Assembly (NCBI RefSeq): GCF_003334255.1
Contig: NZ_QOWU01000002.1
Length of the DNA: 64,000 bases
Reading direction: 5' to 3' (one strand)
From: Escherichia coli
Lineage (GTDB): Bacteria > Pseudomonadota > Gammaproteobacteria > Enterobacterales > Enterobacteriaceae
Part shown: in pieces, positions 4,493-54,400 of the stretch
Layout of the letters: each line of letters starts with the position of its first letter
Numbering within the stretch: position 1 is the stretch's first letter
Notes under the pieces: model-generated
Databases searched by the model: none
The model's input: only the letters and a program-made list of their open reading frames with translations
Told to the model about the DNA's origin: nothing
Position numbers and translations under genes: made by a program

Positions 4493-4547
4493 TTCATAAA
4501 AACTTTAGCAACATACTGGAAAAGCGCCGACAGTTGCAAATGCGTTT

Positions 4548-4865
4548 TTACGCGATGCTTCCTGCTCCACGACAGGGAGGAGAGGCAAAGACGGTGTCCT
4601 GCAACCCTTCCCACTCCTTAATAGTGTAAGTATGCAGAGCCAGCGCATGAACGGTAGTAGAGAGTTCCTCCGCTAAAGTACTGTAAATCATTCGATGACG
4701 ATTCAGAAAACGTTCACCCGTAAAACGATCGCTGACCAGCACAACTTTAAAATGGCTTTCAGAGCCGGCTGGGACATTGTGACGATAGCTTTCATCCACT
4801 ACTTCGAGGAATACGGGTTGGAACGCCGCCCTTAATTTTTCTTCTATCCGCTCACGTATCATCAT
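4548..4865 (-). CDS. bolA: Transcriptional regulator BolA
   Basis: Track ORF 4548-4898 trimmed by 11 codons to the ATG giving [15 protein letters not shown] (105 aa, BolA length). Confidence 0.9.
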
Positions 4866-17788: not shown

Positions 17789-17993
17789 GGCGGCAATGGT
17801 TCGTTGGCAAGCCTTAAGCGACTTGTATAGGGAAAAATACAGCAGCCCACACCTGCGGCTGCATCCAGGCGCGGAAGTATACCACTAACATCGCTTTGCT
17901 GTGCACATCACCTTACCATTGCGCGTTATTTGCTATTTGCCCTGAGTCCGTTACCATGACGGGGCGAAAAATATTGAGAGTCAGACATTCATT

Positions 17994-51129: not shown

Positions 51130-51807
51130 TTACACCAGTAATTCCGCAGCCAGCCGTGCAATCAATACGTTAGACAGCAAGACAGGAACATCGAGCTGTT
51201 TTTGCAGTAAATCGCGATGACGTTGGTGAAATCCTAAACAATCCAGCATGATGACATCAGCCCCTTTTGCCAGTAATTCTTTCCCGGCATCAATGATTTT
51301 TTGTTCTGAATCATGAATGGGGTTACCCAATGAAAATACCGGCGATTTCTGCAAAATTTGCCATTTTTGCGCCTGAACGGGCAGCATCTCCTCAACCGGA
51401 ACGATAACCCCCACCTGATGATCTTCAACAATAGAGGAAACCAGTGGAGGCAATATTCGCGACGGCTCAAGAAAGATCGTATTACGCGCAGTCATACTAC
51501 TAATGTTTGCTGTACTCATTAATAAAATGACGTCATAACCCTGATTATCGAGCACTTCAACCACACCTTGCAGGTCACGCTCCACTTTGCGACGCGAAAC
51601 ATGGGCCAGCTGGTTGTCATTTAATAATGTGAGAATGGTGTCTTCGCCTGCTTCTGGCGCGTACTCCGCCATCACTTCTTCACGACTTAACTTCCCCAGC
51701 AGGCTATGATGGGAAATATTATCTTCGTCAATGTATTCCGTCAGGAGCGGCAAAACTTCCTGCATAGGTACAATGCCGATGGTCAGGATCGCCAACGACG
51801 CACTCAT
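51130..51807 (-). CDS. aroM: Protein AroM
   Basis: 225-aa track [33 protein letters not shown]; downstream of aroL-yaiA as in the aroL-yaiA-aroM operon. Confidence 0.95.
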
Positions 51808-52064: not shown

Positions 52065-52265
<201 letters not shown>

Positions 52266-52305
52266 TTATTTCACGGGATGAACGTTAAGTATAGGCGCTC
52301 GAAAA

Positions 52306-52830
52306 TCAACAATTGATCGTCTGTGCCAGGGCGCTGCGAATTTCAGAAATCACCTGGCTGGGTTCGTTTGTTGCGTCGATGATAATATGCGCAACTTCGC
52401 GATATAGCGCATCGCGTTCTTCCAGCACTTCCTGAACTTCTTCGCTCAGCGGTTTTCCCGTTAAGGTTGGCCGTAAATCTTCTTCCGGTGCAGCTTGCAG
52501 TCGGTTAACCAGGACTGATACTGGCGCACACAAATAAACCACGATCCCGTTATTTTGCATGAAGTGACGATTAAATTCCGTCAGAATAATGCCGCCGCCT
52601 GTAGCGATAACGGTGGATGGCGCAGTTACCGCTTCCAGCGCCGCCGTTTCTCTGGCGCGAAATCCCGCCCACTCTTCCCTTTCGACGATCTCCGCGACCG
52701 TCATATTGAGCTGTGATTGCAACCACTGATCGGTATCGACAAACCGACGGTTAAGCGAATCGGCAAGGGCCATTCCGACCGTTGTTTTACCACAGCCCCG
52801 AGGCCCGATCAGAAAAAGAGGTTGTGTCAT
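52306..52830 (-). CDS. aroL: Shikimate kinase II
   Basis: 174-aa track [29 protein letters not shown] (P-loop GPRGCGKT). Confidence 0.97.
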
Positions 52831-52993
52831 CGTGGGTTTTCCCCAATAGGTCGCAATGCGGCGAAAGCCGGTGTCATGGGAATAGCGATCATACCATCAA
52901 ACTAGTACAATTTCTATTGTAAAGAAAAAATTCCACTTAAAGTGAAAATCTCAATACACCCCTTACTATACCAATAAATATTCAAGAATGAAG

Positions 52994-53011
52994 TGTAAAT
53001 AATAAATTACA
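52994..53011 (-). promoter_or_regulatory. TyrR-box-like palindrome upstream of aroL
   Basis: TGTAAA-TAATAA-ATTACA, one mismatch from the TyrR box consensus TGTAAA-N6-TTTACA; lies about 165-180 nt upstream of the aroL start, at the 3' end of yaiI. Confidence 0.4.
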
Positions 53012-53012
53012 T

Positions 53013-53471
53013 TTAGCCACGACTACGTTGCACTTCCAGCCACCACTTCTCCAGCTCCGCGGCAAAGGCCTGGCGGTCACGTTGTGAAAGGCTATCTGGT
53101 CCGCCGGTCTGGATCCCACTGGCACGTAAGGTATCCATAAAATCGCGCATCGTCAGGCGCTCACGAATGGTCGCTGGCGTGTAACGTTCGCCGCGCGGAT
53201 TAAGCGCCGCAGCGCCTTTCTCGATGGCTTCAGCAGCCAAAGGTATATCTGCGGTGATCACCAAATCGCCCGCTTCACACTGCCGGACAATTTCGTTATC
53301 GGCAACGTCGAAACCTGCCGCGACGCGCAGCGTACGAATAAATCGCGATGGCGGCACGCGTAAACTCTGGTTTGCTACCAGTACCAGCGGCATCTGCATA
53401 CGTTCCGCCGCGCGATACAAAATCTCTTTAATTACATTGGGACACGCGTCGGCATCCACCCAAATTGTCAT
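53013..53471 (-). CDS. yaiI: UPF0178 protein YaiI
   Basis: Track ORF 53013-53591 trimmed by 40 codons to ATG giving [26 protein letters not shown]; 152 aa. Confidence 0.9.
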
Positions 53472-53590
53472 AAAGTCATCCTTTGTTGGGTAATCCTCTA
53501 TTGTGTCGCGCTTTTGCCTTCCGGCATAGTTCTGTTTATGCTTCTGCCAGCGATTATCAAAACAATGAATTTCACGGCAGGAGTGAGGCA

Positions 53591-54400
53591 ATGGAAAAGA
53601 AAATCGGTTTTATTGGCTGCGGCAATATGGGAAAAGCCATTCTCGGCGGTCTGATTGCCAGCGGTCAGGTGCTTCCAGGGCAAATCTGGGTATACACCCC
53701 CTCCCCGGATAAAGTCGCCGCCCTGCATGACCAGTTCGGCATCAACGCCGCAGAATCGGCGCAAGAAGTGGCGCAAATCGCCGACATCATTTTTGCTGCC
53801 GTTAAACCTGGCATCATGATTAAAGTGCTTAGCGAAATCACCTCCAGCCTGAATAAAGACTCTCTGGTCGTTTCTATTGCTGCAGGTGTCACGCTCGACC
53901 AGCTTGCCCGCGCGCTGGGCCATGACCGGAAAATTATCCGCGCCATGCCGAACACTCCCGCACTGGTTAATGCCGGGATGACCTCCGTAACGCCAAACGC
54001 GCTGGTAACCCCAGAAGATACCGCTGATGTGCTGAATATTTTCCGCTGCTTTGGCGAAGCGGAAGTAATTGCTGAGCCGATGATCCACCCGGTGGTCGGT
54101 GTGAGCGGTTCTTCGCCAGCCTACGTATTTATGTTTATCGAAGCGATGGCCGACGCCGCCGTGCTGGGCGGGATGCCACGCGCCCAGGCGTATAAATTTG
54201 CCGCTCAGGCGGTAATGGGTTCCGCAAAAATGGTGCTGGAAACGGGAGAACATCCGGGGGCACTGAAAGATATGGTCTGCTCACCGGGAGGCACCACCAT
54301 TGAAGCGGTACGCGTACTGGAAGAGAAAGGCTTCCGTGCTGCAGTGATCGAAGCGATGACGAAGTGTATGGAAAAATCAGAAAAACTCAGCAAATCCTGA
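53591..54400 (+). CDS. proC: Pyrroline-5-carboxylate reductase
   Basis: Track ORF 53483-54400 trimmed to ATG giving [20 protein letters not shown] (Rossmann motif); 269 aa. Confidence 0.94.

Follow-up and report, generated by a model that had tools for sequence, protein, structure and literature searches.

A near-consensus palindrome between yaiI and aroL of Escherichia coli is very probably the promoter-distal strong TyrR operator of aroL-yaiA-aroM

The palindrome at positions 52994-53011 of the 64,000-nucleotide stretch of Escherichia coli DNA analysed here, referred to below as the window, is very probably the promoter-distal strong TyrR operator of the aroL-yaiA-aroM transcription unit, at which a TyrR hexamer would act as the repressor. 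The original prediction had already taken this palindrome for a TyrR box of aroL, and that reading is borne out by a match of strong-box quality, the first rank in a PWM scan, a position from -54 to -37 relative to the transcription start site (TSS), essentially invariant half-sites and a partner box 76 bp downstream. A TyrR box upstream of aroL is a known, textbook feature, and TyrR control of aroL via three boxes has been documented since the 1980s and 1990s. The analysis shows that a known, experimentally characterised operator is recoverable from raw sequence. It adds that Escherichia and Citrobacter share both essential boxes at a fixed spacing, that the promoter is of the extended -10 type, and that a substantial minority of E. 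coli genomes have the yaiI stop codon within the box.

The box reads TGTAAATAATAAATTACA on the plus strand and TGTAATTTATTATTTACA in the sense orientation of aroL, on the minus strand. Compared with the consensus TGTAAA-N6-TTTACA, 11 of the 12 specified positions match, so that the palindrome does carry the single mismatch first ascribed to it. The G-N14-C pair is kept, with the G at position 2 and the C at position 17, and both residues are invariant in all 25 aligned loci described below. According to the published definition, a strong TyrR box has at least 10 of 12 matches to this consensus together with the invariant G-N14-C, while a weak box requires an adjacent strong one. By this definition the box at 52994-53011 is a strong box, and it lies within the promoter region of aroL, a gene controlled by TyrR. 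The window is identical to K-12 MG1655 across the box and the promoter, and differs from it at two positions in the leader; the box corresponds to positions 406224-406241 of K-12. A literal search of the open-access literature for the box sequences returned no relevant match, the only match being in an insect paper.

The genes at this locus stand in the order proC, yaiI, aroL, yaiA and aroM. The proC gene lies on the plus strand (53591-54400), and the other four lie on the minus strand: yaiI at 53013-53471, aroL, the regulated gene, which encodes shikimate kinase 2, at 52306-52830, yaiA at 52065-52256 and aroM at 51130-51807. With an identity of at least 95%, the stretch has a match in each of the 5,426 complete E. 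coli genomes, where proC, yaiI, aroL and yaiA are the annotated genes, and yaiI is found upstream of aroL in every one of these genomes. The yaiI gene had been described as convergent with aroL, which is wrong: the two genes are arranged in tandem, with yaiI upstream of aroL and co-directional with it. The description of the box as abutting the yaiI stop codon is accurate, as the stop codon occupies 53013-53015 and the gap is 1 nt.

The position of the box relative to the promoter follows from a published start site. In Kim et al. 2012 (PMC3415461), the supplementary TSS table has a single entry for aroL, with 136 reads and a 5′ UTR of 127 nt. The upstream 51-mer of this TSS, ATTTATTATTTACACTTCATTCTTGAATATTTATTGGTATAGTAAGGGGTG, is identical in the window, and this places +1 at 52957, a G on the minus strand that is 127 nt upstream of the ATG. 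In this numbering the box spans -54 to -37 and is centred at -45.5. It had been placed about 165-180 nt upstream of the aroL start, which holds as a distance (164-181 nt from the ATG, whose A is at 52830) and misleads as to location, since the aroL leader takes up 127 nt. The box is far from the start codon because the leader is long, and is itself promoter-proximal.

The aroL promoter has an extended -10 element, TGGTATAGT (TGnTATAGT), at 52965-52973 on the minus strand (-16 to -8), and no good -35 hexamer. A generic sigma-70 scan missed this mapped promoter, its sole match being TAGAAA-17-TATGAT, because the promoter is of the extended -10 type and lacks a -35 element. Downstream of the start, a second strong TyrR box (box 1), TGGAATTTTTTCTTTACA, occupies 52918-52935 on the minus strand (+23 to +40, centre +31.5). 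It has 10 of 12 consensus matches, and the further half-site match that had been pointed out at about this place therefore stands, with two mismatches on the sense strand. Between the two strong boxes, a candidate weak box, TGTATTGAGATTTTCACT, lies at 52940-52957 on the minus strand (+1 to +18), with 8 of 12 matches and the G-N14-C pair kept. It is separated from the box at 52918-52935 by 4 bp, their centres being 22 bp apart, and is probably box 2, an assignment that we infer. By the published definition, this site at +9.5 is at best a weak TyrR box beside a strong one. A TrpR-operator-like dyad, GTACTAGTTTGATGGTAT, which matches GTACTAGTTAACTAGTAC at 13 of 18 positions, follows at 52891-52908 on the minus strand (+50 to +67). 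The region has the composition of a multi-box operator, in which a second strong box is present and the candidate weak box adjoins it. The two strong boxes are 76 bp apart from centre to centre, which is about 7.2 helical turns and thus non-integral, and the present sequence evidence does not account for the loop geometry at this spacing.

The box was also ranked with a PWM built from other members of the regulon. The DNA upstream of aroL was kept out of the training regions, which were those upstream of aroF, aroP, mtr, tyrP, tyrR, tyrB and aroG in K-12. From aroF, aroP, mtr, tyrP, tyrR and aroG came eight sites with G-N14-C and at most three mismatches, and the matrix was symmetrised; the region upstream of tyrB contains no site within three mismatches with G-N14-C. 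The only perfect TyrR box in the training regions is that of aroG. Seven of the eight training boxes score from 16.5 to 23.2 bits, and the eighth, a tyrP box with three mismatches, scores 10.5 bits. Among the 63,983 positions of the window, the box at 52994-53011 ranks first with 21.15 bits, within the range of seven of the eight accepted regulon boxes, and the box at 52918-52935 ranks second with 13.8 bits, so that the scan that had been proposed as a check favours both sites. The candidate weak box at 52940-52957 scores poorly. The next matches, at 17824-17841 (TGTATAGGGAAAAATACA, 12.4 bits) and 4535-4552 (TGCAAATGCGTTTTTACG, 12.3 bits), score lower by a clear margin than all but one of the eight training boxes, and probably arose by chance.

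Conservation was examined at aroL loci of related species. An AroL protein search with one genome per species gave 25 enterobacterial loci, of which 6 are from Escherichia, 18 from Citrobacter and 1 from Winslowiella (Erwiniaceae), and none from Salmonella, Klebsiella or Enterobacter. The alignment comprises 25 distinct sequences, namely the window and 24 Escherichia and Citrobacter loci. Conservation of the palindrome had been named as a further check, and the upstream box is kept within two mismatches in all 24 of these further loci, at -179 to -183 from the ATG. The second box is likewise found within three mismatches in 24 of 24, at -104 to -107 from the ATG, and the spacing between the boxes stays within 74-76 bp. 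The half-sites of the upstream box are essentially invariant, with one substitution each in two of the 24 loci, while its N6 spacer varies in sequence and is always A+T-rich.

The same contrast is seen in mean column entropy, which is 0.00 and 0.08 bits in the two arms of the upstream box, 0.35 bits in its N6 spacer, 1.03 bits in the last 16 nt at the yaiI end and 0.82 bits in the 20 nt downstream of the box. The extended -10 element (0.14 bits) is conserved in all 25 aligned loci, the TrpR-operator-like dyad (0.21 bits) is highly conserved, and the arms of the +31.5 box have 0.28 bits. The candidate weak box in the middle is poorly conserved (1.22 bits). Judged from the alignment, this pattern is that of a putative protein-binding footprint and not of neutral drift.

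The operator layout appears to differ outside the Escherichia and Citrobacter group. For Klebsiella pneumoniae, the table of Kim et al. 2012 (PMC3415461) gives an aroL TSS with a leader of 144 nt. With +1 taken as the final base of its upstream 51-mer, a TyrR-like box, TGCAATGATAAGTTTACA, would lie at about -21 to -4. The gene upstream of aroL there is divergent and is not yaiI. It is from this box position and this divergent neighbour that the difference in layout is concluded.

The arrangement in the window can be set against what is reported for the K-12 operator. There are said to be three TYR R boxes in the aroL promoter-operator, together with a TrpR site; boxes 1 and 3 are reportedly essential, box 2 dispensable, and box 1 located beside the TrpR site. 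Binding of TyrR to the box has reportedly been seen as protection from DNase I, and mutations in the box are said to relieve regulation. The tyrosine-bound TyrR hexamer is reported to repress by looping out the promoter, phased DNase I hypersensitivity is said to indicate the looping, and regulation reportedly changes when 4 bp are inserted between the TrpR site and box 1. In the window, two conserved strong boxes surround the promoter, a weak and unconserved one lies between them, and the TrpR-like dyad is beside the downstream box. The box at 52994-53011 is thus almost certainly TYR R box 3 of aroL, and it is presumably the site reported to be protected from DNase I. It is the same organism, the same gene and the same sequence as in K-12, with no detectable difference, and the layout agrees with the operator as reported in its essential and dispensable boxes, its TrpR site by box 1 and its looping. 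A potential IHF site has reportedly been noted for the aroL region; within 52831-53030, nothing matches the IHF consensus WATCAANNNNTTR with one mismatch or fewer.

A mechanism consistent with this layout can be proposed. A TyrR dimer would use its C-terminal helix-turn-helix to bind the box, with contacts to the G-N14-C pair and to the TGTAA/TTACA arms. [quoted passage not shown] Wrapping or looping of the DNA between the occupied boxes would then enclose the start site and the extended -10 promoter, and repression would follow. TrpR, bound at the adjacent leader operator, would have a smaller effect that depends on TyrR. Reviews, which give no coordinates, describe aroLM as repressed by TyrR and as a target of TrpR too. 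According to them, tyrosine turns the TyrR dimer into a hexamer, and this hexamer keeps RNA polymerase out and so represses aroLM and aroF-tyrA. In a 2025 preprint, knock-down of tyrR raises aroL transcripts and the activity of a P(aroL) reporter, and the effect of TrpR is small. The key paper on the aroL operator is that of Lawley & Pittard (J Bacteriol 176:6921-6930, 1994). The supplements of one promoter-architecture paper were searched, and aroL was not found in them.

Other TyrR operators share some of these features. The aroF-tyrA operator has three TyrR boxes and is subject to tyrosine-mediated repression by the hexamer, and, like aroL, it has multiple boxes. Among them are the strong boxes TGTAAATTTATCTATACA and TGTAAATAAAAATGTACG, with one or two mismatches, at -164 and -112 from the aroF ATG. 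Unlike those of aroF-tyrA, the aroL boxes straddle the promoter, a single one upstream of it and the other two within the transcribed leader, and a TrpR operator is added. The strong boxes of tyrP and aroG overlap the core promoter and, as in aroL, a strong box near the -35 region represses. The aroL box differs from them in being placed immediately upstream of -35 in a promoter of the extended -10 type, and reportedly it needs the downstream box for repression.

It could be argued that the site is a non-functional palindrome that arose by chance, as the 182 bp spacer between yaiI and aroL is A+T-rich (35% G+C) and loose matches to the consensus are common: with up to three mismatches, 26 are found in the window compared to 24.4 expected from shuffles, which is no excess. 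There is no general enrichment, and what stands out in the window is the quality of this box and its neighbour only. With at most one mismatch, the box is the sole match in the 64 kb, where shuffles lead one to expect 0.13. In 20,000 dinucleotide-preserving shuffles of the spacer, a site as good as the box occurred 35 times, and two sites within two mismatches occurred twice. Together with its top PWM rank and with half-sites that stay essentially fixed in 24 further loci while the flanks and the N6 vary, these values make a chance origin highly improbable. There is about as little probability that the inverted repeat serves as an intrinsic terminator or RNA 3′-end hairpin of yaiI. It does follow the yaiI stop codon directly, and a terminator scan of 52700-53700 found no terminator-like site, so that no other terminator is offered before aroL. 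The scan is equally empty at the box, however, and the RNA stem would consist of 5 A-U-rich pairs around an 8 nt loop and would not be G+C-rich. Shuffled versions of the 61 nt region fold about as well as the region itself (z = -0.41), and fixed arms, a retained G-N14-C and the lack of compensatory changes are the pattern of a protein site. An intrinsic terminator at 52994-53011 was therefore rejected. With no intrinsic terminator between yaiI and aroL, transcription of yaiI may read into the aroL operator.

Somewhat less remote, and still quite improbable, is that the box owes its conservation mainly to a role as an UP element for contact with alpha-CTD, or to some other regulator, and that TyrR binds it incidentally. 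Its span of -54 to -37 is UP-element territory, the promoter has no good -35, and the N6 is A+T-rich throughout. The invariant positions, on the other hand, are exactly the TyrR arms, with a G and a C that an UP element would not require, and a second TyrR box is conserved with it at a fixed spacing. The two roles are compatible, as TyrR bound at -54 to -37 would compete with alpha-CTD. The preferred reading of the site remains that of a TyrR operator of aroL.

Several further features of the leader were observed. An extended -10-like motif, TGGTATGAT, at 52888-52896 on the minus strand overlaps the TrpR-like dyad (52891-52908) and is almost invariant across Escherichia and Citrobacter. This motif is what the generic sigma-70 scan picked up as TAGAAA-17-TATGAT. 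Box 1 is 24 nt upstream of it in E. coli. In Winslowiella iniecta, a single TyrR box is found at -128, 25 nt upstream of GGTATGAT, the counterpart of TGGTATGAT. No TSS is listed at the motif by Kim et al. 2012 (PMC3415461), and it could be an ancestral or secondary aroL promoter. The same source lists a very weak antisense TSS (4 reads) at 52919 on the plus strand, which it attributes to proC, the UTR being 672 nt long. This start falls within box 1, has TACAAT ahead of it at 52906-52911, and is probably noise. The 127 nt aroL 5′ leader RNA (52825-52957, minus strand) has a predicted fold of -34.1 kcal/mol (z = -3.18, with 0 of 200 shuffles as good). Its stems coincide with the region of box 2 and box 1 and with the TrpR dyad, and the fold may merely reflect the DNA palindromes. 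An Rfam search of 52200-53700 found no family at E <= 1.

Within E. coli, 3,893 of the 5,426 genomes carry an exact copy of the 40-mer that has the box at its centre, and in the two variant 40-mers that were inspected all changes are at the 3′ end of yaiI and none is in the box. It is unlikely that the box also acts on yaiI, with TyrR blocking yaiI read-through or coupling the genes, or, separately, that TGGTATGAT is a TrpR-controlled second aroL promoter; both ideas draw on geometry and conservation. The yaiI stop codon itself is polymorphic (window 53007-53015). TAA is changed to CAA in strains such as F5656C1 and AR_0369, in which yaiI is two codons longer and ends at a TAA inside the TyrR box (T-G-TAA), in agreement with the annotated CDS end. 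The exact variant 40-mer with the yaiI stop inside the box occurs in 988 of the 5,426 complete E. coli genomes (about 18%), and in the alignment the yaiI stop of a further Escherichia sp. locus (L002) appears to lie inside the box as well.
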